This document shows positions 41,729 through 63,998 of a DNA stretch of 64,000 nucleotides, piece by piece. The notes below the pieces were generated by a model, which was given only the letters and a program-made list of their open reading frames with translations, was not told where the DNA came from and searched no databases. Position 1 is the stretch's first letter; every line of letters starts with the position of its first letter. A program made the position numbers and the translations under genes. The stretch comes from a virus (lineage: Duplodnaviria; Caudoviricetes), in IMG/VR virus record IMGVR_UViG_3300032277_002183, positions 147-64,146 of that record. One strand, 5' to 3'.

Positions 41729-41742
41729 TGTATTATAATACA
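41729..41742. promoter_or_regulatory. perfect 14-bp palindrome TGTATTATAATACA, candidate promoter/operator
   Basis: Lies in one of the few intergenic gaps, ~35 nt upstream of the 41693 start; contains TATAAT on both strands. Confidence 0.4.
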
Positions 41743-41773
41743 CAAAAATGCCAGTTATGAACATAATTTTAAG

Positions 41774-42184: not shown

Positions 42185-42202
42185 TATCAATATCCTTCAA
42201 AA

Positions 42203-43540: not shown

Positions 43541-44392
43541 AGGAGGATAAACCACTTCAGAACACTCATCAGCAGGTTCTGCTCCGGGAGTTCCTTTTTC
43601 TGGAGTACATTGAATAATCCCGCCAACTGTACAACAATAAGTAGGGTAAAGCTTAGGATCACAACATAGGGGTTGGTCGCCAAAATCATATGGACCAAAG
43701 TTCTCACCACTTCTTGCAGCATAATTACCTCTCCCTAATTCACAAAGGGATTCCAGTTCTTCGCCACCTCTTTTATATTTAGACAGTCTCCATATTACGA
43801 ACTCTCCAAAATTCCCATTATTATTATTCTTAGTATTTCGCATAAAAAGATCAAAAAAGCTTTTAATCGGAAAAGCATTTCCATCTGCGTCTACGTTAAC
43901 AATTCTAGAATCAGCCATAAAGGGTTTTTTGTCTACTATTGTTACAGCGTCAGTATTTCTCACACAACAAATTGTAATACCTTCAAACTGAGGGCATTCT
44001 GGATCGTCCTGTCCACGTTTTATTACATCTACTATTTCTTGGCTAGTAGCAAAGAATCTACCACCACAAGCATCTACGCCCAACTCTGCAATCGCGCCCA
44101 ACTCGTAGCCGTTTAGACATACAATAAATTCATCATCTTTCTGCTGATTTACATTGCATAAAAGAAGTGCATAATCAAACTTACTATCATTGCAAGGATG
44201 CTTCGTTCTATCAAAATCAGGGTACCCAGTAGGAGGGTCAAAATTTCCCGGAACTGGGAGATAGACTCCTGAGTTCCAAGCCTCATCTAGATCCATTGGG
44301 CCTGCGGGATTTCCATCACAATAGAACAGGCATTGTCGCTTGCATTGAGCGCAAGATTCTCCCTCTCTACAACAACACGCGCGGCTATTCAT
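42203..44392 (-). CDS. 729-aa Cys/Pro-rich repeat protein, probable tail-tip or fibre component
   Basis: AAGGAG RBS; MNSRACCC start; six C-x-[YW]-x-W...W...C...CC-x-P...G...G-T-C units separated by poly-Pro. Confidence 0.75.
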   Translation of the reverse strand: MNSRACCCREGESCAQCKRQCLFYCDGNPAGPMDLDEAWNSGVYLPVPGNFDPPTGYPDFDRTKHPCNDSKFDYALLLCNVNQQKDDEFIVCLNGYELGAIAELGVDACGGRFFATSQEIVDVIKRGQDDPECPQFEGITICCVRNTDAVTIVDKKPFMADSRIVNVDADGNAFPIKSFFDLFMRNTKNNNNGNFGEFVIWRLSKYKRGGEELESLCELGRGNYAARSGENFGPYDFGDQPLCCDPKLYPTYCCTVGGIIQCTPEKGTPGAEPADECSEVVYPPPEPPEPPPPLPRTCKGECIYTWSESEFKWILDGLSFCCKSTEVLGDDCDVYDPTAERECNCCPPTYVGPFDGAVGLGTCDDIGVACGLPPERPAQCYFEWDGSDWNPFEAIPNYCTKTCCKPDFLGTFNGEISLGTCQDTCPRFPPPPPDPPSINCWYEWTGSDWYFRSDVSFCEETCCEPTGTGSEIGELVLGTCQESCPEPPPPTTPTCEGGCVYKWELDSSDPHGGYWKLVDLASDCTCFCCPPLHIGNDGDIYIGTCQDDVCPDPPDPPPPEDPPSPCGWCAYMWDGNTWTLDTALTGCFEPCKCSEPPYDGTFDTEMANGSCSEPPSEPPDDTNVCPDGTANEGQSIPDGETEEWCHTSSEPDDDDDDDDDDDDKPTSPVCPNAECAWLFNMDTWSWELIFGCPFTCPDHSCNPPAPLPLDVDISSPDFFPSADTPCFPP
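42404..42439 (-). repeat. (GAT/GAC)12 tract encoding 12 Asp
   Basis: atcatcatcatcgtcatcatcgtcatcatcatcatc on the + strand. Confidence 0.9.
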
Positions 44393-44408
44393 TAACCATA
44401 ACTCCTTA

Positions 44409-48113: not shown

Positions 48114-48114
48114 A

Positions 48115-49587
48115 TTAGTAAGACCAATCTATGTTTAGTGTGTATGATCCATTCGCTGGAGTCCAAGATTCTGTTCTATTTAGTTCGTAAGCTCCAGTTG
48201 GCTTATAAGCGTTTGCCGCAACTAGAGCCTCAGTAGTAGGTTTACTATCCCGCTTGTCTTTTTTCATTGTCCAGTCTATCGAAACATTTCTTTTTCTTTC
48301 TGGCGTCGTGCCCATATCTTGAAAAATAGGACCATCTGCCTTTCCTATTACAGCTATTATTGCCACCACCTGAACGGTTCTATTTTCATTATCGTCTGTT
48401 ACAGTTAACGTTTCAGTAATTGTATCATCAGATTCCTTTTCTTTGTCACTAAAGTTTACACTATATGCTATAGTACCGGCAACAGGGCTTTTTGTAACAC
48501 TTTTTGTTAAAATATTATTTGTTAATGTGCCCGCTCCGTCCTCTTTAACTTCATTAAAGAAAGTACTAGCAAGACTGTAAGCCTGATCTAAAACTCCGTC
48601 TAAAACGGCTTCAGCTTGTGCAACTTTGTTTTCCTGTTTACTAGAAAAGCTAGATGTGCTTAAACCAGCTATTGTACCATTTACAGTGACGGATGCTGTC
48701 TGATCTTCACTAAGATCATACCCAAGTTCAATGTCATGTGTAACAGACTCTTTAGAGACAAACCAAGTCTCAGTTACTGAATAAGATCCACCAGCTAAGT
48801 CAGAAGTAGCGACTCGATTATGGTTATAATATTCCTCTGTGCCAAGATCAATAAAATCGGCAGAGCTAGCACCCATATATACAGGAATAAAGTCAGTGAA
48901 CCTATCTTTATCTGCCATGTCCTTGCTTATGGTAGCATCAGGTGCGCTAACAAGCCTACTTAAAACCCAATCTTTCGCCTCAGACCATGCAGATTTTTGA
49001 TAGGTAGTGTTGAGTGATTTAATATATCCGGTAGCATTTACTGTGTGCGTGATCGTAAAAGTTTTTAGAGTTGTGTCTGAAACTACACTGTTGGTAAAGG
49101 TTCTTTCTGAGTTTTCAGCTACCTCCCAAGTTTCTTCTGCTGAAGAGAGAGAAAATCCATTTCCAATTTTGCCATCTCTTTTGTGGGCCACAAAATTAAA
49201 TGTATAATCTTGAAACTGCACAGAGCCAGAATCATCCTGATCTCCATAATCAATGCTAGTCAGAACAGCGTCGGTAAATGTAAGGTCGTTAGAAAGGCCT
49301 CCGTAAGAAACTATTTCAAGTGTACCGACAGGAACCTCATTCTCTGTCAAGGCTAGTTTTTCTATCATTTTGCCAGCCAAATTATTTTGTCGAGCACCCG
49401 GAGTAGTTATGGCTCCCTCAGCAATGATTTGACCCGTGACAGTAATATTATATATTAAGTCAATTAAAGTGCCATCTCCAGATTCAACTCTTTCAGTACC
49501 AATAGAATACTTAGGAAACGGACCAGTTGCACTAGTTCCTCCTATAGTGAGCTGATCTCCTCCAATGGGATTAAATGTTACTGCCAT
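48115..49587 (-). CDS. minor tail protein (distal-tail-like)
   Basis: AAGGAG RBS; repeated beta pattern (TITHTVNATG, YSVTETW, VTVNGTIAG, YTLNIDWSY); context. Confidence 0.55.
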   Translation of the reverse strand: MAVTFNPIGGDQLTIGGTSATGPFPKYSIGTERVESGDGTLIDLIYNITVTGQIIAEGAITTPGARQNNLAGKMIEKLALTENEVPVGTLEIVSYGGLSNDLTFTDAVLTSIDYGDQDDSGSVQFQDYTFNFVAHKRDGKIGNGFSLSSAEETWEVAENSERTFTNSVVSDTTLKTFTITHTVNATGYIKSLNTTYQKSAWSEAKDWVLSRLVSAPDATISKDMADKDRFTDFIPVYMGASSADFIDLGTEEYYNHNRVATSDLAGGSYSVTETWFVSKESVTHDIELGYDLSEDQTASVTVNGTIAGLSTSSFSSKQENKVAQAEAVLDGVLDQAYSLASTFFNEVKEDGAGTLTNNILTKSVTKSPVAGTIAYSVNFSDKEKESDDTITETLTVTDDNENRTVQVVAIIAVIGKADGPIFQDMGTTPERKRNVSIDWTMKKDKRDSKPTTEALVAANAYKPTGAYELNRTESWTPANGSYTLNIDWSY

Positions 49588-49598
49588 TTATAAACTCC

Positions 49599-52500
49599 TT
49601 AATCTTGATAACCTCTAACAAACGTAGGCATAACTCCTGTGCCCAATCCTACAACTCCAGATATTGCTATATTCATATCTGCTACGGTGATGTTAGCTCC
49701 TGAAACAGCCAAGTCAACATTTGAACTCTCTGTAAGATTATACACAATTAGGTTAGCATTTGCATCCAATTCTTCACCTCCGCCAATTCCTTTTCTATAT
49801 ACAACTAGAGTTGCTACACCTGAATTTGGTGCTGTAGCAGCAATAACTAAATCATTATTTGCGTTGTCTCTTCTAGCTCCAACTGTTGTAGAAGTTCCTG
49901 CGCCTGAAATTGAAATGTCGGCGGCACTATCAAATACTCCAGTTGCAGAATCAACACTAATAGCAAGAGGTGCAATACCACTAGCTATACCAAAGCTATC
50001 TGTTTTGACTACAAGTGTTGAAAGCTTATCCGAAGGAGCATATATACCTCCCTCGACAGAAAGTGTTGTTGTCGCAAACTGCGCACCACCCTGCGGACCC
50101 ACGCCAGTGGGAGCACCAAGGTATACCGCTAACGGAATTGCCTCAGATAGCGAAACAGCATCTTTCTGCTGGACAAACATATCCGCACCACGCTGTGCAG
50201 CTTCTCCTCCAAACACATATAGATTTCTATCATTTGTAGAAAATTCTGTACCTGCGACAAACGCATCACTTTCAAATGTCGTCGTGGAAGGTCCAGCGAT
50301 GTTCAGTGTTGAAGCGAGTGTTGTATCTGTAAACGTAGCACCAAGGAATAGTGTAGTTTCAAATTTCTCAGCCTGCCTTAAGTGTAATGGGAAGTCTCCG
50401 CTCGCAGGATTTGGAACATGTACATGTAAAGGTATTCCAGAATTAACTCCTATAGAAGCAAACTGAAGACCCATAGTATTAGTACCACTTTCAAAAGGTC
50501 GGTGGTACAACAAATCTTGATCGCCACTACTGAGTATTGGAGCTGATATAAATAGATTTCCTGAATTGTGCCTTATGTCTAAGATGGATATCTTTTCTAT
50601 GGTTAGCTCTGGTCTTCCAGCAAATCGAACCTTGAATGTTCTTCCCGCTAATAGTTTTGGCACACCAAAAGGTCTTACTATCTTAACAAAAGTAAACTGA
50701 CTTGAAACAGAAATTGTTCTTGCTGATTCACTATTATATTGTGCGACCTCGGCAACATTCTCTGTTGGGGTGAACTCAAAGCTATAATCATAGACAGGAT
50801 CTTTAATAAATTGTATATCATTAGTTAAAATACTATTTGAACAAATATTTACACTACTTCCAAAACGAGATGACGTTGAATCCGTATAATTTGCTATTAA
50901 GGATGCTGTGTCATTTTCATGTATTGCAAATTTGTATATAGTGTTTGTTCCCGGCTCAGAAACTGCTACATAACCGCTTTCTGCATTTAAATCAAGACCA
51001 TATCCAAACAGTTTATAATTATACCCGCAAGAAGTAGTGCCAGATATATTAGAGGACACATATCCTCCAGCATAAAGTGATTCTATATGAGACCAAGAAG
51101 AACCATCATACTTATAAATATATACAGCTCCTTCTGGTGCGTTTCCATGAATTACACTAAGGTCGGTGTTAACTACATAAGGGTCTAGAAGAGGAGCAGA
51201 AACTGCGGCATAATCTCCATCAATTTTGAATTTTGCTCCAAAACCAACCTTTATCCCGTCCGCTAAGTTAAATCTATTTTCCTTATATCTAACACCATCT
51301 GAAAGAGTTTTAAACGAGAACACTTTATTTTCAGTATAATAACCATCAGATAATTCAAGTTTACAGACAGAACCAAAGTTTATTGATTGCTCGTCATAAT
51401 AAAGATCTTCGCCATCCCATTGGATTGTATTTCCAAGATAATTGTTTGATTTTAATACCGTTGAATCTTGATCAATAAAGTCTCCTAAGATTGCATCAGT
51501 CATAACCCAGCCATCAATATCCTCAACTGTCACAGGAACCGTAAAAGAGGGCTCTATAGCACATAAGTCATAAGTAGGTGTTCCATATCTAGTTCTGGTC
51601 AAAGTTGCTGGTTGCAATATGCCCACCATATCTCTAAGTCCGTTTGGAGTGCTGATTCTTGCTGAAATAGCTATTCTATTATTTTGAGAAATTGCTACAG
51701 ATTTATATCTCACTAGCATTGAGCTATCACCCACTTCTAATAAGTCAAGCTCAGCTAAATCTTCATAAATTTTGTCATACTCAAATTTAAGAGATAGACT
51801 GTCTTCATCCGAATATTCAAAAACTTGAAGGGCTTTAATGTTCGATAAAGCGGAAACATTTGTCGCTATTGCTAAATAGTTATCATTTGAACCAATTGCG
51901 TCTCTAGATAGCTCTCTATCATAGAAAGTATTTATGGCATCATTTCTATAATTAGTAAGCGTTTCTCCTACCTTAGAAGGCGCATAGTAGCCATATCTAA
52001 AATTGCTGATTGGGACATGTTTATTTCTAGATATTGAGTTACTTTTTGTTTCGGGTATTACAGTTTCAGAGTTATTACTAAAATCAAATCTATTTTCTGT
52101 TCTTAATAGCTCACACGAATGACTATAATTATTGGCTATTGAATTAGCAGATGGAATCACCGCACCTGAAGCATGCAATGTTATTGGGTCTCCCTCAAAC
52201 GTTATAGGGCCAGACACAAATAGGTCTGCGTCTTTTGCGTCAACCTGTCTACCAATGAATAGACTTGTGTCAGTTGTTGCATTTTCATGTCCTCTGAAAA
52301 ATAATGTTCCGGTAGAGCTTATTGGTTCAGTATTAATTGTTAAAGGCATTAACCCTGAAGCATTGCCGGGCTCCATAAACAGTGGCATGTCTCCGCTGGC
52401 ATCAAATCTATTTATATGCAGAGGCATAGCTCCAGTGCCATTTCCTGTCATACCGCCCACAAAAAGTTGGCCCTCTACACACGGCATCGAATTTGAAATT

Positions 52501-55500
52501 CCATGAACACCAGAAAATGCTACATCTATATTACCACTAGATAAACCACCTTGAACGTAGAAGTCAAAAGATCCGCTAGTATAGGTTGGATTGATGGAAA
52601 GATTTAAGCCTTCATTTACTCCTGTTCCACCAATAAATGTTAAGGGTATGGTTGCTTCACGGTGTGTGCCTGTAGGAGGGATCATGGAAAGTGCAAGTCC
52701 ATCACACTCAAAACCTATAACATCTGACATGACTAGATCAAGTCTATTGTCGTCTACGACTTCCCCTAAGTGTAATGGCGCAAAGTTATAAGCTAAACGA
52801 ACACCAGAGATATGTAAATCAACATTGCCACTTTCGGCAATATGGCCTCTAGTGAAAAGATCCCTATTTCCACTTTCAATAGGAATACTATTAACCATCA
52901 AAGAAAGAAATTCTGGCTTAGGTAAGTCAAAAGCTAATTGAGGCGAAATAACCTGAATACTACTACTCTCTGTGCCTAAAAGAACGCCAACAGATTCATT
53001 CAAATGCGGGTCAACGTTTCCAACACCAGCCCTAACCAAGTCCAATGTTCCGGGTATTTTTTTGTCGAATCTCAATTCCACGGGGTCGTCAATAACTAGT
53101 TCAGGAGCATTGAACAAAGCGTTGTCTATAGCGTCAGGATCAGGTTGGTCAAGTAAATACCAATTTCCATCACAAGCAAATCTTCTAATTCTACCAAGAT
53201 CATATTCTTGATATGTAACATTAGCTATCACTGTTGCATAATTAATAAATGAGTGGGGATTATCCTCATTGTGATCAACATTATTATATGCTTTTTTATA
53301 AGCCTGTACGCCATCATCATAAGGAGAGGAGTTACCGAAGCGTCTGGGTCGCGCTCTCCATTCATCGTTCCAAGAAAGAAGCGAGATAGCTAAGACTTTT
53401 CCGCTTTTGTGGAAGGAACGACTATATGTTTCTTTGTTTACATCATCAAATTCTAACTGGTAATTTGTAGGAATCCTCACACCAAAATCATCGACTGTAT
53501 CAGTTAGCGCTTTTCCTGTTCCGTCATTATGTCTAAATGTTCTATTGTCTTCAGACGAAAGAAGTTTGTGATCCATAAAGTAATTACGCTCATTAAGAAC
53601 ACTTTCTCCAAGATAATTTGTGGGCGAAAGAGAAACTGTGCCTATATACCTACCACCGACAAACCTATATGAAGGACTTAAAAATGCCATGTCCTGCCAA
53701 TTTTGAACTCCCCCAAAATAAAGAGGTGCTAGATCTGAGCTTTCTTGGCCATACACTAAATCACTTCCAGAAACCTGACCAGCTTGCCTTATGGTTAATC
53801 TTGGGTCTCGATTATATAGTCCAATCGTTGGTAGTACACGAGGTCCATCAGCAATACCGACAGCTCCAACAGCGTCTCCCTCCAAATTTCCTAGAAGAGT
53901 GCTGTTATAATCAACAGTCACGTCAAAACTTATATCTATCGGAATTGTTAAAACTTGACCCTTCTTTGAGAAGTTACGCATACTATAGAAAATAACAGGT
54001 GTGCGATGCGAATTATTTATATCAATAGTCGCGGCGTTATTAAAAGTACCTTCATTTTTAATGTATTCATATACGTTGTTTAAATTGTACGCAGTATCCT
54101 GAGAAAAATCTTCAACAAAAGAAAAGAATGGAAACAAAGGTTCCGTGAATCGACCCAATGGCACTGCTCGTGGCAATGGAGTTCTTCCGGTATCTGAGAA
54201 TATTGCATAAGCCCTATCATTAGGAAGTCTTCTGCTCTCAAAATTGCCCGCAGGATATCTTTCGTTTTTAATTGAAGCAAATATCTTACCTCCAGCAATA
54301 TCAAAGCCGCAGAAATCTAAGATTCCACCACCTTCTGTAGTTGACTCATTCAGATTAAAAGTAGCCTCAGCATTGGGAGAACCATAACCCGGAATTGCAG
54401 CAGTTATCCTTTGTATAAATTCTGGTCGATCACCCGACAAATCATATAAGACAAGCCTTTTAGCCACAAGTGCGTGATCGCCAAACTCATCTATTGGTGA
54501 AGTATCTAGATAGGCTAATATGCCGTCCTTGGCTCTAAATTCAGATACAGCATTCGGAACATAATAGGTTGTAAAATTTTCATGTCTTACAATAATCTTA
54601 GAGCCATTAAACCGCAAAAAGTTCTTATCCTCGAATCTAACTGGGTCGCCATTAAAACCTCGTAGCGGCGTGCTTCCATCGAGTGCGGTCGGAACTTGTA
54701 TCTCTTGAAGATTTGACCGGCGACCATAACTATTACTCGTTTTATACTCTAAATAAACGAGGAACTTAAGGCAGTCATATTCAGACTCATTGCCGAGTAC
54801 AAAACCTTCTCGAGTTCGGTATGCAGGATTTTTATAAAGATGCTTACCTTGAGCTAAACCGCCAAAAAATGGACTGAGTTTAAAAAGAGCAGATGTGTTT
54901 GGATCATATTCATCACCTGAGTAAACAGAAGTGCTTGAATTAATTGACCAGCCTAAAGCGCCGGATTTCCTATACAAATACTGATGTCCCCCCCAAAGAT
55001 CAGCTCCATGTGGATAAATTCTGGGATCTTTAAGTGCTTTCTTAGTTGTTTTATATTGGTCTTCCAAAAAGCCGTTAAAGCCGTCCGTAACAATATAGCG
55101 ACTGGTCTTCATACCAAACTCAGAGGTATTCGTAAAACTAATGACTTTTATATTATTTCCATCATTAATCATTAGCTTGCCAGAATCAGCCTTTATGGTT
55201 GGAACATCATAGTCTCTGAAAGTAGGTCTCACATATTCATTCGCTTTTTCGGGTACTGCAATCGGAACTGTAAGAAATAGACTACCGGGAGGACTATCAA
55301 ATTTAGAGTAAAAAATCTCAAACCTTGGCACAATTTTGTAGGGGATCGCCTGCATTGATCTTGCTACTAGAGCATCTTCATCCTTGTCAGTAGGATCGGT
55401 GTCTAATATTTTCTTAATGTGCAAAGAGAAAGTATCTACATTTACAATTTCATTATAAGGTCTTGTGTGTCTGTCTGCAAATTCCTGTAATATTACGTTT

Positions 55501-58151
55501 TCTTGTCGCTTTGTATGTATACGCTCATCTGGCATTATTCCAAATTGTTTACTGCCTCCAGTGGTGCCATCTCCTCGAGATGGAGGGGATTGGCCTTGGG
55601 CATCGCTATATCCTATGTATTCAGGGTTTGATGAATTTGGTTCTATAAAGTCATAATCGAACAACAAGAGGTCAGAGAAAAAGCTGAAGGCTGTCGAAAA
55701 GTGATTAACTTGATCTGCGACATAGAGATTATTATCATCATCAAGTGTTATTGCGACACCAAATCCGTCAGTAAACTTTTCCCCCTGATTAAAGTCTGCT
55801 AGATAATGACTTCTGACCCTAGATGAAGACTGTGCATTATAAGGATATTTCCATATGTTACTATCTACTTCTTCCTTGTAAATTTTTGTGTCAAATATGT
55901 CTACGTTCACCCTTCCTGTTCCAAATCTTACTTTCCCAAACGCAAAACCTTGACTATCCGCGATATATATATTAGATAAGTTACCATATTTTTTCTGCGC
56001 ATAAAGTTTATGCCAGTATATATCATCTATACCAACATCCTGATCCATCCCCGGCAATTTGCTAATGTGATCATTCTGTGTATCCGCAGTAACAACTAAG
56101 CCGTCGTCTCCAACAAAAACGCATCCCTTATTTAATATCCCCGTTAGAATCCTGTAAGCATGGAAGAACCGAAACTGAGCGTCTCTTGATTTTACTTCAT
56201 CTGAGGTAGTAGAAGAAGTGTCAGGAATGTCAGGATCTTCAAAATCATCCATACCGTTACCATAGTTGTAAAAATCTACATCATCTCCATCTGTAGAAAC
56301 AACTGGTTCGCTCGTAGGTGTTTCAAAAGTTTCATCTTCACCATATGTAATTCCTGTGGGATCATCTGGAGCAGGTTTAGCTGGATCATCAGTCTCTTCT
56401 GAAGTCGTGGCGCAAAGTTCCGATATTGTAATACGCAGTTCTTTCATCTGAAGCGGGCCAGAGCCATGTCGCTGCTCAAGAAATTCGTCTTCATAATCAT
56501 TGCGAACTTTCCGGGCATCAATTGAAGATCCTAGTTCTGGATCTACATAATCGTGAATAAAAAAGTCCTTTGCGAAAAACGTCATATCTGCTAAAGCCCG
56601 AAGGTCATTTGCTGGCTGAGATATTGCTTTGACACCATTTGAATTAATATCTATTGCGTGACCCAATCTAAAGTTAGAGTCTTTAACCTCAAGCTCACCA
56701 GTACTGCTTGAATGACGCCTGTCAATGAATAGCTCTTTAAAAGACATATTAGCAGTCAAAACTTCAGCATTGGAAACCTTTTCACCTACAACATTTATGC
56801 CAACATCACTATGAGAATATGCCCAATTAGAGGTGGGATTCTCATTATCTACAGACTTTAATAGTGTCCAATTAATCTTATCAACACCCCTAGAGTCTGT
56901 TATAACTAGCCTGTTTGTAAGATTTGGCTCAGAATATAACTCATAAGAACTACCTGATTTTTTAACATAATGGAGCCCATTTAGTTCATGTATTGATTCT
57001 GTATCTGCGGCAGGACCACCGGCATATGCAGCGGATTCTAAAGCGGAAGTTATTTTTATTAGATCGCCGTTTTGTAATTCTGTGGTGTCTAGGGTAACTG
57101 TGTCATCTGATACACTAATAGAAGAAACATTTCCGCTCCTACGAACAAAATGATCTACTCTTCCAGCTCCCTTATTAACTAACTTAGTGGTCATAAAATT
57201 CATGCCCGCGCCCAAGCCTGAGATTTCATCCACAAAAATTTTAACATTTGTTCTTTTACCACTTGGGCTTGTCTCAACGTATTCTATTACTTTGGTCTCA
57301 GTGTAATCAAGGTTTTTATGATCATCGAGAGCAACTGCAATACCGAAATAGGCGTTGCCCGGTGGGAGTGGATTCTGAAACCGTGTATTTCCAAAAACAG
57401 TAATGGCCTCGTTCTGTATATCCGCCGGTACTTTTCCAGTTTCTCCACTGGGTCCAGTCGCAGTACATTGGAGCACGCCACCTCTGACATAACGGGGATT
57501 GAGACCTTTTTCTAATATAGTATTTGCAAAAGCCTCCTGCATCTCTATGAGGCCCATAGTGTTAACGTCCACTCCATTGACTTCAGATCCCATTGTCGAG
57601 CGGGTAATCTTTACACCATCATTTCTCGTAATTTGGAACACAAATTTTAATTCTCTCGGATCACAAATCGCGCCCGGAATGGTCACGGCCTGACCAAAGT
57701 AGTCATGTCCCTGATTCGCAGTTATAGTCTCAAAATGAATTTCAGATTCACCAGCTATGGTATGTACAGGAAAAAAGAGGTTGCCATAGTGAGTTTTATC
57801 ATTAGGCATATCATCGTGATATGAAAGAATTGGATCTCTTACTGTTCTTATTCTATGAAGACTTTTAATGTCTTGAGTATATCCAAGTACTGTACTATCA
57901 AAATCTGGCAGTGATGCGATAGCCACATCGCCGGAAATTTCTATATTATCATACTCTGGAAAATCATCAGAATTAAGCTCGAAAGGTGTTTTTTCAAATG
58001 CACGCACACGATCCAACTCTAGCGAGGATGTTTTATCCTGCCAGTTGGTAAAGTCTTTTATATTCTCAGGCGACTTCATAAATAAATCAAGAGTGGAAGA
58101 ATCTCCATTCTTAATTGCAAGCGACATCGCATCTGTTTTCTTCTTTGCCAT
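49599..58151 (-). CDS. 2850-aa giant tail/receptor-binding protein with FG-GAP-like propeller segments and beta-repeat stalks
   Basis: YFGIAVAL, RLGHAIDI, GFGVAITL, GFGAKF...AVSAP...GAVYIY, FGYGLDL, RFGSSV; two blocks of ~15-20-aa L-x-[IV]-x-G repeats. Confidence 0.7.
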   Translation of the reverse strand: MAKKKTDAMSLAIKNGDSSTLDLFMKSPENIKDFTNWQDKTSSLELDRVRAFEKTPFELNSDDFPEYDNIEISGDVAIASLPDFDSTVLGYTQDIKSLHRIRTVRDPILSYHDDMPNDKTHYGNLFFPVHTIAGESEIHFETITANQGHDYFGQAVTIPGAICDPRELKFVFQITRNDGVKITRSTMGSEVNGVDVNTMGLIEMQEAFANTILEKGLNPRYVRGGVLQCTATGPSGETGKVPADIQNEAITVFGNTRFQNPLPPGNAYFGIAVALDDHKNLDYTETKVIEYVETSPSGKRTNVKIFVDEISGLGAGMNFMTTKLVNKGAGRVDHFVRRSGNVSSISVSDDTVTLDTTELQNGDLIKITSALESAAYAGGPAADTESIHELNGLHYVKKSGSSYELYSEPNLTNRLVITDSRGVDKINWTLLKSVDNENPTSNWAYSHSDVGINVVGEKVSNAEVLTANMSFKELFIDRRHSSSTGELEVKDSNFRLGHAIDINSNGVKAISQPANDLRALADMTFFAKDFFIHDYVDPELGSSIDARKVRNDYEDEFLEQRHGSGPLQMKELRITISELCATTSEETDDPAKPAPDDPTGITYGEDETFETPTSEPVVSTDGDDVDFYNYGNGMDDFEDPDIPDTSSTTSDEVKSRDAQFRFFHAYRILTGILNKGCVFVGDDGLVVTADTQNDHISKLPGMDQDVGIDDIYWHKLYAQKKYGNLSNIYIADSQGFAFGKVRFGTGRVNVDIFDTKIYKEEVDSNIWKYPYNAQSSSRVRSHYLADFNQGEKFTDGFGVAITLDDDNNLYVADQVNHFSTAFSFFSDLLLFDYDFIEPNSSNPEYIGYSDAQGQSPPSRGDGTTGGSKQFGIMPDERIHTKRQENVILQEFADRHTRPYNEIVNVDTFSLHIKKILDTDPTDKDEDALVARSMQAIPYKIVPRFEIFYSKFDSPPGSLFLTVPIAVPEKANEYVRPTFRDYDVPTIKADSGKLMINDGNNIKVISFTNTSEFGMKTSRYIVTDGFNGFLEDQYKTTKKALKDPRIYPHGADLWGGHQYLYRKSGALGWSINSSTSVYSGDEYDPNTSALFKLSPFFGGLAQGKHLYKNPAYRTREGFVLGNESEYDCLKFLVYLEYKTSNSYGRRSNLQEIQVPTALDGSTPLRGFNGDPVRFEDKNFLRFNGSKIIVRHENFTTYYVPNAVSEFRAKDGILAYLDTSPIDEFGDHALVAKRLVLYDLSGDRPEFIQRITAAIPGYGSPNAEATFNLNESTTEGGGILDFCGFDIAGGKIFASIKNERYPAGNFESRRLPNDRAYAIFSDTGRTPLPRAVPLGRFTEPLFPFFSFVEDFSQDTAYNLNNVYEYIKNEGTFNNAATIDINNSHRTPVIFYSMRNFSKKGQVLTIPIDISFDVTVDYNSTLLGNLEGDAVGAVGIADGPRVLPTIGLYNRDPRLTIRQAGQVSGSDLVYGQESSDLAPLYFGGVQNWQDMAFLSPSYRFVGGRYIGTVSLSPTNYLGESVLNERNYFMDHKLLSSEDNRTFRHNDGTGKALTDTVDDFGVRIPTNYQLEFDDVNKETYSRSFHKSGKVLAISLLSWNDEWRARPRRFGNSSPYDDGVQAYKKAYNNVDHNEDNPHSFINYATVIANVTYQEYDLGRIRRFACDGNWYLLDQPDPDAIDNALFNAPELVIDDPVELRFDKKIPGTLDLVRAGVGNVDPHLNESVGVLLGTESSSIQVISPQLAFDLPKPEFLSLMVNSIPIESGNRDLFTRGHIAESGNVDLHISGVRLAYNFAPLHLGEVVDDNRLDLVMSDVIGFECDGLALSMIPPTGTHREATIPLTFIGGTGVNEGLNLSINPTYTSGSFDFYVQGGLSSGNIDVAFSGVHGISNSMPCVEGQLFVGGMTGNGTGAMPLHINRFDASGDMPLFMEPGNASGLMPLTINTEPISSTGTLFFRGHENATTDTSLFIGRQVDAKDADLFVSGPITFEGDPITLHASGAVIPSANSIANNYSHSCELLRTENRFDFSNNSETVIPETKSNSISRNKHVPISNFRYGYYAPSKVGETLTNYRNDAINTFYDRELSRDAIGSNDNYLAIATNVSALSNIKALQVFEYSDEDSLSLKFEYDKIYEDLAELDLLEVGDSSMLVRYKSVAISQNNRIAISARISTPNGLRDMVGILQPATLTRTRYGTPTYDLCAIEPSFTVPVTVEDIDGWVMTDAILGDFIDQDSTVLKSNNYLGNTIQWDGEDLYYDEQSINFGSVCKLELSDGYYTENKVFSFKTLSDGVRYKENRFNLADGIKVGFGAKFKIDGDYAAVSAPLLDPYVVNTDLSVIHGNAPEGAVYIYKYDGSSWSHIESLYAGGYVSSNISGTTSCGYNYKLFGYGLDLNAESGYVAVSEPGTNTIYKFAIHENDTASLIANYTDSTSSRFGSSVNICSNSILTNDIQFIKDPVYDYSFEFTPTENVAEVAQYNSESARTISVSSQFTFVKIVRPFGVPKLLAGRTFKVRFAGRPELTIEKISILDIRHNSGNLFISAPILSSGDQDLLYHRPFESGTNTMGLQFASIGVNSGIPLHVHVPNPASGDFPLHLRQAEKFETTLFLGATFTDTTLASTLNIAGPSTTTFESDAFVAGTEFSTNDRNLYVFGGEAAQRGADMFVQQKDAVSLSEAIPLAVYLGAPTGVGPQGGAQFATTTLSVEGGIYAPSDKLSTLVVKTDSFGIASGIAPLAISVDSATGVFDSAADISISGAGTSTTVGARRDNANNDLVIAATAPNSGVATLVVYRKGIGGGEELDANANLIVYNLTESSNVDLAVSGANITVADMNIAISGVVGLGTGVMPTFVRGYQD

Positions 58152-58160: not shown

Positions 58161-61100
58161 TTAGTCTGATCGCTGATTTAATTTTCTGGTGAACTCTTCT
58201 AGTGCAAGATCAATTTTATCTCCAGCCTGTGAAACAACCGAGTCACCAATGACTTTAACAATATTATTAATTGCTTCCTGTGAGAAACCCGGAATATTCA
58301 AGGTTCCATCAACTTGTATTGTATGTGATATTGAAAGATCCGAGAACATAACAGCAATATTACTTAGCATTCCTGCTAGACTATCAAAGACAGAAAGAGA
58401 TTTTGCAACCGCATCCATCATGCCTGAACCCATACCAGACATCATACCACCATTTTGCCTATATTGCACTCCCCCAACAGATCCACCTTTAGCAAATCCG
58501 GGAATTTTACCTCTGTTAACAGAATTCATAAATCCAGTGCCATGTTTCTTAACAGCAGAAGGACTCATCACAAACTCACCCGGCGTCAACATAGCAGGAA
58601 CAGAATCCACAGAACCACCTCTAGCAAACCCTGCAACGGGTTGGCCACCAAAGAACTGATTCATTCTAAAATATCCTTGTCTGTGAGAATTTGCTACAGC
58701 TTGATGTTGTGACTGGAGTAGCATTTTTCTGAATTTTGACGGCAAAAAGAAAGACGAAATCTGCACTTCTTCATTCATCTGCTTTAGCATTTCAAATGGT
58801 TTTTCTACAAGACCCTGCAAATGCGCTGGAAGCATCCCTTTGGAACCATCAGCAAAACCGGACCCAAAATTGGAGATACCAACAGGAAGAGGATTGCCGT
58901 TCGTATCGAAGAGACTGCCGCCAACTATAGAAAGTTTGCCCTCTCTCATTCGCTTCACAGCATAATCACGGGGAACAGTAGGTATGCGAGAAGTTATCCC
59001 AAACAAAGCTTGTTGCTTCATTAAGAAATCACTTCCGGGGCGAGTAGCTCGCATGTCGAACCGCCTCTTCATCACTTGTAGATCTACACGTCTTCCAAGC
59101 GAAGTGTTTTCAATTACGGACCCATCTTGTCCGGCGGGTGCAGGGGCGGCCCCGCTAGGTCTTCCTATAACTCTAGCGTCTCTAAAATCAAGAGTTTTAG
59201 CTAACAGTGTATCCATAGCTTCATTGACGTACATATTTCTAAATGTTGGATAGAATTTGTCCACGGCTCCGGCACCAAATGCTCCCTCAAATACACTCCT
59301 TTCTAGACCACCTGCTCCCCCTCCCACACGCGTATCGAGTGGCTCACCTAAGAATGTGCTACCATAAATCAAGTTATCTTTCATAATCTTGGAAACAGTT
59401 TTAGGATCAAGCCTATCCAACAGTCCTAGTATTCCACCCCCTGATTGTGGATCTAAAGAGTTTTTGGCGAAGGATAGCCCCATCAAACCAAGCATGCCTC
59501 CAATATCAGCGGGAAATGTATTGAACATACCTGTACCCATCAGCATTTCGGCTGTTCTTTTTTTACCTAGTGCTGCTGCCCAACTTAGGTCACCCTTTCT
59601 TCTAGGCTTGAGGAGCTTGACTCCCGGTAACATAGGTACGTTCTGCTCAATCAAAGAATCAAGCCATGTACCAAGATCCTCTATCCCCGTATATGGAGCA
59701 TTAGCCATAGCATAATCTAAATTCTTATAGAATTGTTCTGCCCTCCAATCAGGATCATTTACGCTCTGTCTCCCCTGCCTATCAAGTGCGTTTCTAGCTC
59801 CGGCAGACGTCCTATTAGCCATAGGATCACCAGTACCTGTTCTAGGTCTCTCTGGGCCAGTGGACCCGTTTTGTCTATAGACAACACTAGTGTTACCGTT
59901 GTTTATAGAGGAAAGTGTTGAGGTTCCTATCTTATCGACAGCGCTTTTTCTTATAACAAATTCGCCCGGAGTTAGCATTGCTGGAACCGTATCAGTTCCT
60001 CTTGGCTGGAATACAGATCCGCCACTTGCAAACCCACGAATCAGTCCCCCTCTTGCGTTTCTGGCGGGTTGCAGATTTTCGAGAGCAGTGACCGCACCTT
60101 TAAGTTCAGTTACCATTGTGCTTAAATTTTCATTACTCTTCTTGGCCAATTGTCTAATTTCTTCTTGTTTAGCTATTTCTCTTTCTCTGATTAGAGCCTG
60201 CGCGTCTTGCTCTCTCTGACTTATGGCCTGAAGTTCAGCAATGAGCTGATCTTCTTTGTTTGTTCTCTCAAAGATAGCCTTAACCAATTCAGGAGGCGCG
60301 CCCTGTCTTCCGCCTGTCATTCTCCTAAAGTTCGTGTCTAGCTGTCTGACTTGCAGCTGCTTTTTAATCATCTCTCCGGTCATACCGGGAATAAGTTCAA
60401 CGTCTTTGAATTGATCCAGTAAGTTTGCAACAGCGCCCCGCATCTTATCTGGAATAGCTTCTACATTTCCAGTCATCAGAACTCTTTGAAGTGCCATGAA
60501 CGATTGATCAATTTGTCTTCGCCCATCATTAGTAGCAAAGGTGTAGTTCTCAATAGACTTCTGCATGGCATTACGTTTAGACTTTTCTTTATCTATTTCA
60601 GTCATAACTGCGGCGGCGAGATCTGCCTGATTCGCTAATAATTTCAGCGCCTGCTCAGCATTTGCCATTTCTTGATTGAGTAGCTTTTGTTTGTTTATCT
60701 GCTCTTGTTCTCCTCCTAAATCGCCCTTCGCCGCCTTACGACGGGCTTTCCGTACAGCGTCCGCCATCGCTTCTTCTAACATAGCAAAATGATCCCTTGC
60801 TCCAAAGTCAATATCGTCACCCCCCATGCCTACTTTCGCATTCCTTCCTTCAAAAAATGCGCCTCCGGGATTAAACCCGCGAAAAGCTCCTGCGGGAGCC
60901 ATAGGAATATTTTGACCAAGTGCAGCCATAACTGCTAATCCTTGCTCTGCTATAGCATCCTCAATTGATAAGTCTATATCCATAGCATCTCTAAGTCGCG
61001 CATTGCCTCTTTTTATAACATCAACCATATCCATGTTTGCTTGACGGATAGTCTGAGCTTGTTTTCTAACCGCATCTCCAAACATTGCGATTGAATTAAC

Positions 61101-63998
61101 TTGCGCTTGTTGAGTTTTAGCTAATTTTCCTGCGGCATCTATAACTTCATCAACATTATGGCCGAGTATATCCATAAGCTCAGAAATATCTGAAGCTTCA
61201 AATCCATCTTCAAATAAGTTCTTTAGAGCCTCTTTCGCTTCTGCTGTAAGACTGGACGCATCAACACCGAGCATGGCTACAGCCTCTTTCATTCTTTCAA
61301 AAGGCTCTAGATCCATCAGTTCGCCGGGATCTCCTATGATACCCTCAAAATTAGTTCGCATTGCCTCATTTTCTCTGAGCCTTCCAGCTGTAGCTCCAAA
61401 CCCCATATCTGTTAAAGCAGATGCTCCTTCGACATTGAAACCATCTTTAAGTGTTGCTATAAGATCGCCAGATGTTACTTTTACATTTTGAATAGCTCCA
61501 GTAATCTGACCAAGGGCGGCTTTTGCTGCATCAGCAGCATGACCAAATTGAATGAATTGTACATTTACTTCCTGCAAAGCTTTGGCTCTAGCTCTTTCAG
61601 CTTGCGCGAGCTGGACTTCTAATATGGCTAACTTTCGTGCGGATTCAGCTCTTTTCTCTGCGGCATGCAACATCTCTTGGTCAGCATTTCTTCGAGCTTC
61701 CACAGTCTCTCTCGTTGCTTTTCTTGCAGCCTTTGCAGCTGCGTCTGCTTCCATGCCCGAAGCAATGGCTTCAGCAAAAAAGCCTCTATATAGTGTTGAC
61801 TGTAGCAATTGTAGCTGTTTTTCGTATTCTGTTGAAACGTCTGCAAAGCCTTTGCCTTCTTCCATCGCGGTCTGTACCAGAGTTTGCAAATTGCTTCTAA
61901 TAGTATCGGCCACCTGAAAAGCCACTTTGCCTTGCTCTGCAGTAACGTCGTTTAATTGCTGAAGCGCATGTTGATACTGTTCATTAGTATATACGCCAGT
62001 AGCGAGCCCATTCTCAAGCTCATCGTATGCGGCTCTAGCGCTTTTGGCAGCATTAGCATTAGAAATAAATTGCTCAGCAATTCTAGTTTGTTCTTTAATT
62101 AAAGCGTCGCCTTCTAGACCTTTTTCTGCAAGTATTCGAGTTTCCCTACTGAACTCGCCTATTGTTTTTGCTGCGGCTACAGTTGCGGTTGCTAATGCTT
62201 GAATCGTCTTACGAGTTGGTTCAGATTCGTTTCTTAATTTTTGCAGTTCTTCTGCAATCGCCATTTCCTGCTGACGCATACGATCCATTGCACCTTGAGC
62301 CGAACCGGCTCCAGTTCCAGCCCCCATAGCAGAAGTGAAGCCCGTAGCATTATCTCTGGCCTGATCACGCAGCTGCTGATCATTAATATTAAACGCACCC
62401 AACAAATTTTGCTGTTGCTCTCTCCTATCATCAAGAGCATTAATACCGCCCTCTCTTATCCTCATGATAAATTCGCTAAAGCTTTTTGCCATCTTCTTAC
62501 GTTCCTGCTCAAGCTGAGCAGTGTAAGCCATGTGCGCCCCAACAGCCAGACCAATTGCACCACCAAGAATACCAAGAGCTGCAGGAGCGGCAGCAGCAGC
62601 TTTTTCCAACGCAGTATTAATAGATTTTCCCGTTGTATTCGCGTTAGTAGCAATAGTATTGGTTACAATAGAAGCAAAAAAGCCGCCAAGAGCTGATCCA
62701 GTCTGAGCACCTATCATAGCCATGATACCGCCGAGCATTACAAACTGCTGAACAAGCTGTTTAGTTTCATCAGCAAGATTTGTAAACTCAATAACCATAG
62801 GAGCCATAAACGCAGTCATCATTGCAGCATTTCCTACCGCCTGCAATCTACCGCCCTGATTCATACCAACAGGGCCGCCCTTATTAAACTTGGCAACACC
62901 AGTTTTGTTCATACTATTCAAATTAGAATAACCAATTGCCTGTGCAGAAGATTTGTTTATTACATACTCACCGGGAGTTAACATGGCGGGAACACTGTCC
63001 ACCGAACCACCTTTGTTGTACTGCGCGAGTTGAACCATTCCTTGTCTAAGCGCAGATCTACCTGATCTGGCTATGTAGTTGTATAGTTTTTTAGGTATAC
63101 CCTCTTGAGAAGCTGCTTGGTCTTTGCTTCTTTTGACTTCTGCTACCTGAGCATTAGATATCTGGGAATTAAACATTTTCTTAAGACGTTTTCTATTTCC
63201 TGCCATAGCGCTACGACCCAAATCAAATGATGCTCCACCACCAGTAGTCATGGCACCAGTTAACGCTCCTATAACGCCCTCATATAAAAAACCTTGAAAG
63301 GTTCGTGCCGCTGTATCGTCTGCCGCAGAAGTAGCCTTGGCTTTTTCTAAGTTATTTTCGTCCACATTAAGAGCAGGAGGAAGATCTAGCTGTCCACTGA
63401 TTTTGGCAATTGCCGATTGAACCCCGTCACTTATTGCACTCCTTGAAACCTGATCCATTATTGTGCCAAATTCACTACTTTTAAGCATTCCAAGTTGAGG
63501 TGAAGATACTTTATAAGGCGTAGATGGAGGAAGTACGCTAAAATTATACATATGCGCCCTTGCTTGTTTTTCATCTCCTCCGAAATACTTATCAGCAATT
63601 AGCTTTCTTTCTTTTCCGGGTAGAACTATACCCCGCAATTTATCGGCTCTTTCGATACCATATGGTTTTGTAGGATTATATTGGCCGTCGTAACCCATAG
63701 GGTTCATACTTACCGCAGCTACTGTGTTAGGCATAGCCCTAAAGCCTAACGTCCCCGTAGGAGACATCCCAGCCAAAGCCCCTAGTTTACCTCTATTAAA
63801 GCCAGCAACTTTAGGCTGTTTTCCTCCAACAGTATACCCGTTCATCGCCGCTAATCTTTGAGCGCCAATACTGTTCACAGAAGATTTTTTAATGACAAAC
63901 TCACCGGGTGTAAGCATGGCAGGAACTGTATCTCTATTACCTTGACCCGGAACAAAACCACCTTTATTGAATCCATGAATCTGACCGCCCTGATTTTT
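58161..63998 (-). CDS. tape-measure-like protein (>1945 aa; 5' end lies beyond the window)
   Basis: Frame stays open to the window edge (KNQGGQIHGFNKGG...). Long Ala/Gln/Glu helical core, hydrophobic TM-like segments and four F-x-x-GG...D[ST]VPAMLTPGE[FY]V modules. Confidence 0.85.
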   Translation of the reverse strand, partial: KNQGGQIHGFNKGGFVPGQGNRDTVPAMLTPGEFVIKKSSVNSIGAQRLAAMNGYTVGGKQPKVAGFNRGKLGALAGMSPTGTLGFRAMPNTVAAVSMNPMGYDGQYNPTKPYGIERADKLRGIVLPGKERKLIADKYFGGDEKQARAHMYNFSVLPPSTPYKVSSPQLGMLKSSEFGTIMDQVSRSAISDGVQSAIAKISGQLDLPPALNVDENNLEKAKATSAADDTAARTFQGFLYEGVIGALTGAMTTGGGASFDLGRSAMAGNRKRLKKMFNSQISNAQVAEVKRSKDQAASQEGIPKKLYNYIARSGRSALRQGMVQLAQYNKGGSVDSVPAMLTPGEYVINKSSAQAIGYSNLNSMNKTGVAKFNKGGPVGMNQGGRLQAVGNAAMMTAFMAPMVIEFTNLADETKQLVQQFVMLGGIMAMIGAQTGSALGGFFASIVTNTIATNANTTGKSINTALEKAAAAAPAALGILGGAIGLAVGAHMAYTAQLEQERKKMAKSFSEFIMRIREGGINALDDRREQQQNLLGAFNINDQQLRDQARDNATGFTSAMGAGTGAGSAQGAMDRMRQQEMAIAEELQKLRNESEPTRKTIQALATATVAAAKTIGEFSRETRILAEKGLEGDALIKEQTRIAEQFISNANAAKSARAAYDELENGLATGVYTNEQYQHALQQLNDVTAEQGKVAFQVADTIRSNLQTLVQTAMEEGKGFADVSTEYEKQLQLLQSTLYRGFFAEAIASGMEADAAAKAARKATRETVEARRNADQEMLHAAEKRAESARKLAILEVQLAQAERARAKALQEVNVQFIQFGHAADAAKAALGQITGAIQNVKVTSGDLIATLKDGFNVEGASALTDMGFGATAGRLRENEAMRTNFEGIIGDPGELMDLEPFERMKEAVAMLGVDASSLTAEAKEALKNLFEDGFEASDISELMDILGHNVDEVIDAAGKLAKTQQAQVNSIAMFGDAVRKQAQTIRQANMDMVDVIKRGNARLRDAMDIDLSIEDAIAEQGLAVMAALGQNIPMAPAGAFRGFNPGGAFFEGRNAKVGMGGDDIDFGARDHFAMLEEAMADAVRKARRKAAKGDLGGEQEQINKQKLLNQEMANAEQALKLLANQADLAAAVMTEIDKEKSKRNAMQKSIENYTFATNDGRRQIDQSFMALQRVLMTGNVEAIPDKMRGAVANLLDQFKDVELIPGMTGEMIKKQLQVRQLDTNFRRMTGGRQGAPPELVKAIFERTNKEDQLIAELQAISQREQDAQALIREREIAKQEEIRQLAKKSNENLSTMVTELKGAVTALENLQPARNARGGLIRGFASGGSVFQPRGTDTVPAMLTPGEFVIRKSAVDKIGTSTLSSINNGNTSVVYRQNGSTGPERPRTGTGDPMANRTSAGARNALDRQGRQSVNDPDWRAEQFYKNLDYAMANAPYTGIEDLGTWLDSLIEQNVPMLPGVKLLKPRRKGDLSWAAALGKKRTAEMLMGTGMFNTFPADIGGMLGLMGLSFAKNSLDPQSGGGILGLLDRLDPKTVSKIMKDNLIYGSTFLGEPLDTRVGGGAGGLERSVFEGAFGAGAVDKFYPTFRNMYVNEAMDTLLAKTLDFRDARVIGRPSGAAPAPAGQDGSVIENTSLGRRVDLQVMKRRFDMRATRPGSDFLMKQQALFGITSRIPTVPRDYAVKRMREGKLSIVGGSLFDTNGNPLPVGISNFGSGFADGSKGMLPAHLQGLVEKPFEMLKQMNEEVQISSFFLPSKFRKMLLQSQHQAVANSHRQGYFRMNQFFGGQPVAGFARGGSVDSVPAMLTPGEFVMSPSAVKKHGTGFMNSVNRGKIPGFAKGGSVGGVQYRQNGGMMSGMGSGMMDAVAKSLSVFDSLAGMLSNIAVMFSDLSISHTIQVDGTLNIPGFSQEAINNIVKVIGDSVVSQAGDKIDLALEEFTRKLNQRSD

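Follow-up and report, generated by a model that had tools for sequence, protein, structure and literature searches.

A phage tape measure protein with four copies of a joint module fencing exchangeable segments

The tape measure gene

The window analysed here is a stretch of 64,000 nucleotides from an uncultured marine phage (positions 147 to 64,146 of the IMG/VR record IMGVR_UViG_3300032277_002183; Duplodnaviria, Caudoviricetes), in which a minus-strand open reading frame encodes a protein of 1945 aa (P0001, the stop-free translation of 58161-63998). The frame runs into the contig end on its 5' side with no start codon, and its sole ATG falls within the first of the repeated modules, termed joints, that are listed below. 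Reading the contig as a circle did not restore the N-terminus, as the joined ends gave a stop 15 codons upstream and no start codon. The missing part, which lies past the contig end and outside the window, was instead read from a full-length twin of 2405 aa (P0002) that is 100% identical across all 1945 window-encoded residues. TIGR01760 matched residues 98-430 of the twin with 105.6 bits (cut-off 28.8, E 2.7e-30), and PF10145 matched residues 137-343 with 86.8 bits (cut-off 33.2, E 2.4e-24). By these profile matches the window frame encodes a tape measure protein (TMP) for the phage tail, belonging to the TP901 family (TIGR01760 / PF10145), the identity proposed by an earlier reading made from the letters without database searches (hereafter the sequence-only reading). 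The parts of the gene are as follows.

58161..63998, minus strand: tape measure protein gene; stop codon at 58161-58163, 1945 of 2405 codons, 5' end lost at the contig end
63822..63977, minus strand: joint module 1 (residues 8-59), from regex, HMM and the four-copy alignment
63027..63821, minus strand: insert A (residues 60-324), a folded domain seen only in TMPs, with E240, D259 and K289 invariant
62883..63026, minus strand: joint module 2 (residues 325-372), from regex, HMM and alignment, followed by the half copy FNKGGPVG
60039..62882, minus strand: ruler core (residues 373-1320), with abundant helix formers and a start that is Gly-rich/hydrophobic, from composition and hydropathy
62541-62597, minus strand: TM-like segment in the core (residues 468-486), strongly hydrophobic
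59880..60038, minus strand: joint module 3 (residues 1321-1373), of the class FxPRGTDTVPAMLTPGEFVIRKSAVDKIG
58635..59879, minus strand: insert B (residues 1374-1788), a hypervariable slot holding an orphan sequence here
58491..58634, minus strand: joint module 4 (residues 1789-1836), of the class GGSVDSVPAMLTPGEFVMSxxAVKKHGTGFM, followed by the half copy FAKGGSVGG
58164..58490, minus strand: C-terminal tail (residues 1837-1945), conserved, the presumed tail-tip-binding part

The 1945 window-encoded residues showed no Pfam domain, and their PHROG matches were driven by the joints only. Against GenBank phages, megablast of the gene gave no match and tblastn of the protein matched at the joints only, while a PDB sequence search returned TMP gp16 of mycobacteriophage Douge as the sole real match, its two joints being absent from the model. 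No significant Pfam or PHROG match was obtained for the five genes 3' of the TMP gene (2850, 490, 1234, 729 and 309 aa) or for ten ORFs upstream in the relative L006, where no profile match pointed to a tail with or without a sheath. The genes on the 5' side of the TMP gene fall beyond the contig end. No peptidase domain or family was detected in the window protein, its twin or the five 3' genes. The phage also encodes a UvsX-like recombinase.

The joint module

The four joints share the pattern F-x-x-GG-x-V...D[ST]VPAMLTPGE[FY]V...G...L..N, whose strict core D[ST]VPAMLTPGE[FY]V begins at residues 23, 334, 1336 and 1798. Regex and HMM recovered all four copies where the sequence-only reading had placed them, and their alignment contains 17 invariant columns; with equal residue frequencies assumed, the number of times the core should turn up by chance in 1945 positions is about 1e-13. 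Each joint extends over about 50 residues with hydrophobic periodicity and is built of F-x-x-GG-x-V, a variable Gly-rich loop, D-x-V-P-A-x-L-x-P-G-E-F-V and a short helix ending ...G...L..N. In the AF2 monomer the joints have pLDDT < 50. Joints 3 and 4 represent position-specific sequence classes, each of which is kept across phages.

Joint copies 2 and 4 had been described as nearly identical in peptide with purely synonymous codon changes, and the codon comparison of GGSVDSVPAMLTPGE agrees, as 8 of its 15 codons differ and all of them synonymously. The longest identical run between any two joint cores of the window gene is 5-11 nt. Identical codons account for a fraction of 0.44 of the joint cores when copies within genes are compared and of 0.41 when genomes are compared, which suggests that the copies are old and that selection acts on their peptide. 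Between genomes the mean longest identical run is ~9 nt, and runs of at least 20 nt occur in 1.2% of pairs. The purifying selection on the peptide that had been deduced from one pair of copies is in line with the saturated synonymous sites and the position-specific peptide classes. Such saturation indicates that the joints function as protein and not as recombination homology, and the suggestion of a recombination anchor fails at the DNA level, where identical runs within the gene do not exceed 11 nt.

Core, inserts and C-terminal tail

The 948-aa core is composed to 56% of A/E/L/K/Q/R/M with 1.5% Pro and contains one strongly hydrophobic 19-mer with a Kyte-Doolittle hydropathy of 1.88. It is flanked by insert A (265 aa) and insert B (~415 aa), which have 5.3-6.0% Pro in comparison with 1.5% in the N-domain and core, in keeping with the earlier description of two non-helical inserts of ~270 and ~410 aa around a helical/TM core.

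Insert A was modelled by AF2 with pLDDT ~80-90 across residues 78-327. Foldseek searches of this confident model against PDB and BFVD gave no match at E <= 0.001, and a VIA-wide search found nothing above noise (best Z 4.8, a helical hairpin only). E240, D259 and K289 (in AEVK) are invariant across 28 diverse sequences and match the signature E...D...(D/E)xK of the PD-(D/E)XK nuclease fold, which was considered for insert A; the fold searches assigned neither its restriction-endonuclease-like alpha-beta-beta-beta-alpha-beta core nor any other fold. A search for free-standing homologues gave only one 210-aa fragment. Insert A is largely conserved, with 95 of 111 A segments in one cluster, and could belong to the fixed working parts of the TMP instead of being cargo.

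Insert B had only two matches in 1.84 billion protein representatives, both of them TMPs, and none in 79 viral loci; ESM Atlas scores were 0.84 or less and provide leads only. The AF2 model of insert B with joint 4 and the C-tail had a mean pLDDT of 49.8 and was uninterpretable. Neither sequence searches with the two inserts nor the fold search with insert A detected a known enzyme fold or family. The C-tail is kept at 70-81% identity in relatives whose insert B is unrelated, and it is presumed to bind the tail tip in the way of residues 1658-1699 in Douge and 818-849 in lambda.

Shared layout and cassette exchange among relatives

The architecture is retained in 108 full-length relatives and 79 IMG/VR loci, and at least 550 IMG/VR stretches encode relatives. 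About 200 relatives share the layout N-domain, joint 1, insert A, joint 2, TM/helical core, joint 3, [insert B, joint 4], C-tail, with conserved N-domain, joints and C-tail; the largest proteins in this set reach 5799 aa with 8 joints. Clustering of the segments placed the N-domain in 1 cluster and 93 of 106 C-tails in one cluster, and it divided the insert B segments of 77 proteins into 45 mutually unrelated types. The segments between the joints are not invariant among relatives, and the proposal of swappable inter-module segments is substantiated by insert B, which is replaced while its flanks remain 70-81% identical, with breakpoints at joint edges.

Pairwise comparison with the window protein illustrates the exchange. 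P0007 matches at 94% in insert A, 39% in the core, 92% in joint 4 and 78% in the C-tail with an unrelated insert B, and P0004 matches at 65%, 72% and 75% in insert A, core and insert B, respectively. Segment histories are discordant between relatives, and the core is likewise exchanged. Among close relatives insert B is 75-87% conserved, similar to the core and hence under constraint, and its types are replaced abruptly, without gradual divergence.

Most inserts in the family lack a Pfam domain. Two relatives have an ADP-ribosyltransferase domain in the position of insert A, immediately ahead of joint 2: P0099, whose match of 38.9 bits exceeds the cut-off, and L044, whose 21.9 bits fall narrowly short of it. 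The idea of swappable effector domains is accordingly backed in part, by this toxin-type domain in relatives; it finds no such backing in the window protein itself, whose insert A is confined to TMPs without a fold match and whose insert B is an orphan. The locus does not qualify as a strict polymorphic toxin system, since no small immunity-like gene follows the TMP gene; 10 nt downstream begins a gene for a protein of 2850 aa. Some short database proteins start or stop at a joint and may not be whole genes; the P0161 relatives in IMG/VR were unsplit, and P0153 had no IMG/VR relative.

The joint of lambda gpH

A joint profile built from 661 joints aligned over its full length with residues 733-775 of lambda gpH (21.5 bits, E 0.008 at Z = 1e6), so the lambda motif that the sequence-only reading had cited is real. 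As in the window protein, one full joint (FATGG...PAGIVHRGEFV...IG..L) is followed by a half copy (GYATGGYVG), and a Gly-rich/hydrophobic stretch before the joint and a tip-binding C-terminus after it repeat the order of joint 4 and the C-tail. The two proteins differ in that gpH has one joint and no inserts, against four joints and inserts here, and in that gpH matches TIGR01541 (tape_meas_lam_C) at residues 472-813, whereas P0002 gave no match at E <= 0.01.

Maturation of gpH to gpH* and gpHC involves a cut in a Gly-rich region, for which the exact site and the protease have not been mapped (PMC12617516). The gpH joint lies just past this region, and it is position that links joint and cleavage. 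The D and N that are invariant in the joints of the window are not conserved in lambda gpH, which makes self-cleavage chemistry at the joints unlikely.

A carrier with exchangeable passengers

Given the observed architecture, its conservation, the exchange of cassettes, the protein-level selection on the joints and the homology with lambda gpH, we consider it rather likely that the protein is a conserved TP901-family TMP chassis carrying exchangeable passenger segments fenced by joints. The chassis would comprise the TMP core domain at the N-terminus, the TM/helical ruler, and at the C-terminus the tail that binds the tip, with one ancient ~50-residue joint copy at every chassis/passenger boundary. 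The joints would act as protein, and swaps may seem to break exactly at joint edges because only recombinants with intact joints survive.

TMPs occupy the tail lumen and exit before the DNA, for which reason the inter-joint segments would ride in the tail and reach the host envelope or cytoplasm at infection. As related phages exchange inter-joint stretches, passenger domains probably enter the host by way of the tail, a step in which we infer both the delivery and the function of the passengers. The joints would most likely take part in proteolytic maturation beside them, as in gpH to gpH* and gpHC, and/or form a lumen-compatible oligomerisation or docking collar that makes non-helical passengers tolerable in the tube.

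A stronger form of the chassis-and-passenger reading, which can be held only tentatively, takes the joints as maturation sites at which the TMP is cut after assembly, so that a free passenger train is fired into the host before the DNA. If this is true, the family would represent a widespread, fast-evolving phage effector-delivery system, and the lambda gpH to gpH* cut would be placed at the FATGG joint. It is also possible, though less likely than the chassis-and-passenger reading, that the joints are structural and never cut, serving as oligomerisation collars or as places where the tail tube or the assembly chaperone docks. The variable inserts would then remain tethered to the TMP and would serve envelope penetration or host-range adaptation through contact with cell wall or membrane, without being released as effectors into the cytoplasm. 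A ~50-residue pattern with hydrophobic periodicity is unlike a short linear cleavage motif, and disorder of the joint in the AF2 monomer is expected if folding needs an oligomer or a complex. The TMP-embedded domains known so far are mostly cell-wall hydrolases (the S-SCSM1 glucosaminidase and T5 pb2), and a hypervariable slot near the tip-proximal C-terminus suits adaptation to the host envelope. Uncut joints sit less easily with the ADP-ribosyltransferase domain of relatives, which suggests a cytoplasmic target, with the single lambda joint adjoining a real maturation cut, and with the database proteins, possibly incomplete genes, that start or stop at a joint.

That the inserts are a fast-evolving spacer or ruler without a function of their own, the cassettes reflecting relaxed constraint between TMP contact sites, is improbable. 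Insert B has neither homologues beyond close relatives nor a confident fold, and the scarcity of Pfam domains in family inserts points the same way, but the confident fold of insert A with its invariant E, D and K, the core-like conservation of insert B in close relatives, the abrupt change of its types and the enzyme domains in the same slots of relatives all argue for more than filler. Least credible of all, and already disfavoured, is that the repeats are DNA homology anchors for cassette exchange through homologous recombination, since strong conservation resides in the peptide, position-specific classes included, and the cores are synonymously saturated with only short identical runs within the gene and between genomes, even though swap boundaries fall at joints and the phage has its own UvsX-like recombinase.

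Implications

TMPs are usually viewed as rulers that also help the DNA across the envelope. With the chassis and its fenced segments, the ruler looks like a standardised carrier with plug-in slots set between copies of one ancient joint, a layout common to hundreds of uncultured phages and present in miniature in cultured mycobacteriophages, cyanomyoviruses and lambda. Most passenger segments fall outside any known family and, if they are delivered, would make up a large store, so far unexplored, of first-wave phage proteins that might serve host takeover or anti-defence. The joint is a concrete candidate for the as yet unmapped maturation site of lambda gpH, and those who wish to load proteins into phage tails or tailocins could use it as a design rule taken from nature.

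Comparison with known systems

Joints also occur in characterised phages, and a literature search found no paper on a multi-joint TMP architecture. The same joint, identical in its core, stands ahead of a glucosaminidase domain in a virion protein of the cyanomyovirus S-SCSM1 and is also present in S-SM2_012, a protein of the hub region. Mycobacteriophages Douge and Athena have two joints in their TMPs, bracketing ~400-600 aa, and mycobacteriophage TMPs reportedly contain lysin motifs, in work attributed to Piuri and Hatfull in 2006.

Functional domains are brought into the host by other rulers, as proposed here. T5 pb2 is cut after R1127 into pb2* and the muralytic pb2C (PMC10038345), and in Thermus phage P23-45 the 5002-aa TMP gp96 includes a fused virion RNA polymerase (PMC10770324). 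The T5 cleavage splits the enzyme off from the ruler, and the cut ...FVPR|AEGGMM... loosely resembles the joint head x-A-x-GG. As a joint, the T5 site was rejected, because pb2, the only TMP with a mapped cut, gave no score with either joint profile and its A-x-GG + GE..E.V likeness is one by eye only. For T5 pb2, P23-45 gp96 and the mycobacteriophage TMPs, neither a delimiter that repeats nor an exchange of cassettes has been described, in contrast to the family studied here.

Polyvalent proteins are giant multidomain proteins codelivered with DNA that carry variable conflict-type enzymes, ADP-ribosyltransferases among them, and are presumably cut up by processing (PMC5512222). In the present family, the ADP-ribosyltransferase domain of P0099 and L044 is of this type, and the 1945 residues of the window showed no Pfam domain. 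Polyvalent proteins are described as head-packaged or T4SS-delivered and as processed by embedded zincin-like peptidases, whereas here a conserved joint is the delimiter and no peptidase was detected; tape measure proteins are never mentioned in the paper describing them (Iyer et al. 2017; 0 occurrences of 'tape'; PMC5512222). The Sle1/Tme effectors of contractile injection systems (PMC13277306) are bacterial nanomachine cargo with a single C-terminal domain and no reported joint motif, unlike the proteins studied here, with which they share a TMP-like coiled-coil carrier bearing an exchangeable variable domain.

Identity of the tape measure gene

The tape measure protein (TMP) family of the window combines a conserved chassis and ancient joints, selected as protein, with abrupt and incongruent exchange of the segments between the joints. 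ORF listing and translation gave the minus-strand frame 58161-63998 as 1945 open codons (P0001) continuing past the window edge. The window takes up bases 147-64146 of one contig of 64,146 bp. Joined in silico, the contig ends gave no start codon and, 15 codons upstream, a stop; they do not join in frame. The sole in-frame ATG lies within the first motif copy, so the TMP gene is truncated by the contig end. The phage genome is incomplete, lacking genes for the capsid, portal, terminase and tail tube. The database protein P0002 (2405 aa), with 100% identity across the entire window-encoded part, adds the missing 460 residues. It matches TIGR01760 (tape_meas_TP901) at 105.6 bits over residues 98-430 and PF10145 at 86.8 bits, each far over its cut-off, so the window gene encodes a TP901-family TMP.

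Elsewhere, the contig of this uncultured phage carries genes for replication and a block of glycan genes. Five consecutive genes downstream of the TMP (window 40764-58151, minus strand; 2850, 490, 1234, 729 and 309 aa) had no significant Pfam or PHROG match, nor had ten ORFs upstream of the TMP in the relative L006; the tail module of this phage group, as a whole, lies beyond profile annotation.

Four joints in the window

The strict core D[ST]VPAMLTPGE[FY]V was found at TMP residues 23, 334, 1336 and 1798, in joints of about 50 residues.

Joints of the window TMP (P0001; each core plus flanks)
Residues 8-59, minus strand: joint 1
Residues 325-372, minus strand: joint 2
Residues 1321-1373, minus strand: joint 3
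Residues 1789-1836, minus strand: joint 4

The sequence-only reading had described four copies at agreeing positions, two inserts between module pairs and solely synonymous differences between copies 2 and 4, and this observation was confirmed in full. Between those copies, GGSVDSVPAMLTPGE differs at 8 of 15 codons, each synonymously, and over the 13 core codons all copy pairs show 5-9 synonymous and 0-2 non-synonymous differences. Insert A (joint 1 to joint 2) measures 265 aa and insert B (joint 3 to joint 4) about 415 aa, both Pro-rich (5.3-6.0% versus 1.5% in the N-domain and core). Copy 2 and copy 4 each precede a half copy, F-x-K-GG-x-V-G. In the window (58491-60038, minus strand) and in relatives, several mini-motifs in a row, [VY]-Y-[RK]-x-x-GG and F-x-x-GG-x-V, trail each terminal joint, and V(Q)YRQNG follows both joint 3 and joint 4, as if insert B came in with a duplicated joint and trailer.

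Exchange of segments among relatives

In IMG/VR, at least 550 stretches encode relatives of this TMP. An HMM from the four window copies was run over the best 120 homologues and 79 IMG/VR loci. In these proteins an N-domain of ~465 aa is followed by joint 1, insert A and joint 2, then by a core of ~1100 aa, joint 3, insert B and joint 4, and last by a C-tail of ~120 aa. Some relatives have three joints, without insert B and joint 4, and giant relatives reach 5799 aa and eight joints. Taking P0002 as reference, essentially every relative aligned across its N-domain, each joint and its C-tail, and insert B aligned only in the four closest. Segment clustering placed the N-domains of 108 proteins in one cluster, 93 of 106 C-tails in one and 95 of 111 inserts A in one, while the 77 segments of insert B fell into 45 clusters. 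Comparing inserts among relatives, a check named in the sequence-only reading, thereby bore out exchange of the inter-module segments, with breakpoints at joint edges.

Segment histories are incongruent between relatives. Against the window TMP, P0007 shows 94% identity in insert A, 39% in the core, nothing shared in B, 92% in joint 4 and 78% in the C-tail, and P0004 shows 65% in insert A, 72% in the core and 75% in B. In the P0002/P0007 alignment, identity begins at 'RGFA.GG' of joint 3, stops a few residues past that joint and resumes at joint 4. Joints 3 and 4 carry position-specific signatures kept across phages, so the four joints are old paralogues, each under its own constraint, and not recent duplicates.

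In the relative L112 (8404-16470, plus strand), one in-frame stop (10075-10077), 37 residues past joint 1, divides the TMP into 557 and 2131 aa; an error in sequencing, readthrough and a genuine division of the gene are all conceivable causes. The database entries P0143, P0153, P0155 and P0230 start at a joint and P0161 ends 5 aa past one, all on large contigs, as if TMP segments could be separate genes; these entries may be incomplete genes.

Inserts and putative cargo domains

For insert A, a compact domain was predicted from 28 sequences with pLDDT about 80-90 across residues 78-327, and three residues are invariant in 28 diverse relatives.

Invariant residues of insert A (window 63132-63281)
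63279-63281, minus strand: E240
63222-63224, minus strand: D259
63132-63134, minus strand: K289

The E...D...ExK pattern is compatible, by sequence alone, with a PD-(D/E)XK site. Nothing over noise was obtained with the model from Foldseek against PDB and BFVD or from an exhaustive VIA-align search (best Z 4.8, on a helical hairpin), and a search for a free-standing homologue found none. Insert A may be a new enzyme-like domain restricted to tape measure proteins. Insert B was searched with HMMER against the complete set of 1.84 billion representatives; its hits were confined to its own family plus a single C-terminal TMP fragment of 671 aa, and none of the 79 viral loci matched. The AF2 model of insert B was unusable (mean pLDDT 49.8). 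Joints modelled as monomer gave pLDDT below 50.

In the relative P0099, residues 886-1098 match PF03496 (ADP-ribosyltransferase exoenzyme) at 38.9 bits; they lie in the insert A slot directly before joint 2. The relative L044 (2396-11095) carries an ADP-ribosyltransferase domain at residues 1220-1424, at the end of insert A before joint 2, scoring 21.9 bits, slightly under the cut-off. The domain recurs at one place in these two distant family members. Most other inserts of relatives gave no Pfam family.

Joints in other phages

In tblastn against GenBank phages, the joint was the only part of the window TMP matched. TMPs from phages of Gordonia, Mycobacterium, Clavibacter, Rhodococcus, Stenotrophomonas and Nitrincola contain it, and so do T4-like cyanophages. 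The T4-like cyanomyoviruses S-SM2 and S-SCSM1 carry a joint with the identical DTVPAMLTPGEFV core in proteins encoded beside baseplate hub genes: S-SM2_012 (L003:5062-7362) adjoins the gp26 and gp51 hub genes, and S-SCSM1 gp159 (L004:3204-6056; annotated virion protein) has its joint at residues 602-643, directly followed by a glucosaminidase domain. The joint also occurs in more than 1000 clusters of proteins that are under 1069 aa long. The TMPs of Athena and Douge bear two joints around about 400-600 aa; the only part of the Douge TMP built in its cryo-EM model is residues 1658-1699, which leaves the joint without any structure.

Possible role of the joints

TMPs fill the tail lumen and are expelled ahead of the DNA. 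The inter-joint segments would be passengers delivered at infection; TMP-carried enzymes active in the host are exemplified by the P23-45 gp96 RNA polymerase (PMC10770324) and likewise by T5 pb2C (PMC10038345).

Maturation cleavage beside the joints is tentatively put forward as their putative role. The lambda gpH likeness named in the sequence-only reading held up, as a profile of 661 joints aligned end to end with gpH residues 733-775 (21.5 bits, E 0.008 at Z = 1e6), and a half copy comes next, as in the window TMP. gpH is cut to gpH* and gpHC in a Gly-rich region, at an estimated position near residues ~690-710, and residues ~690-817 are unresolved (PMC12617516); the gpH joint starts about 20-40 residues past the estimated cut region. 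Self-cleavage chemistry is argued against, since lambda does not conserve the D and N invariant in the window joints. T5 pb2 is the sole TMP whose cut has been mapped, after R1127 in FVPR|AEGGMM (PMC10038345). This site bears only a loose A-x-GG resemblance to the joint and is ruled out as one, as the joint profile does not detect pb2.

For the joints to form a structural or docking collar that stays uncut is nearly as likely as maturation cleavage, and the two roles are not mutually exclusive. Service as a DNA recombination anchor, as the sequence-only reading had offered, is highly improbable: in 102 strict cores from 35 genes, the share of identical residues encoded by identical codons was 0.44 for cores of one gene and 0.41 for cores of different genomes, and the longest identical nucleotide runs averaged about 9-10 nt (5-11 nt among the window's own joints). 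Synonymous sites are saturated, selection acts on the peptide, and homologous recombination would find no useful sequence identity in the joints. Selection that keeps the joints intact accounts better for breakpoints at their edges.

Comparison with known systems

Full-text literature searches gave no account of TMPs with a repeated delimiter or with exchange of cassettes. Conceptually nearest are enzymes embedded in TMPs, TMP-like CIS effectors and polyvalent proteins, the paper on which (Iyer et al. 2017) never mentions tape measures, and the closest known object to a joint-bearing TMP is the C-terminal region of lambda gpH.
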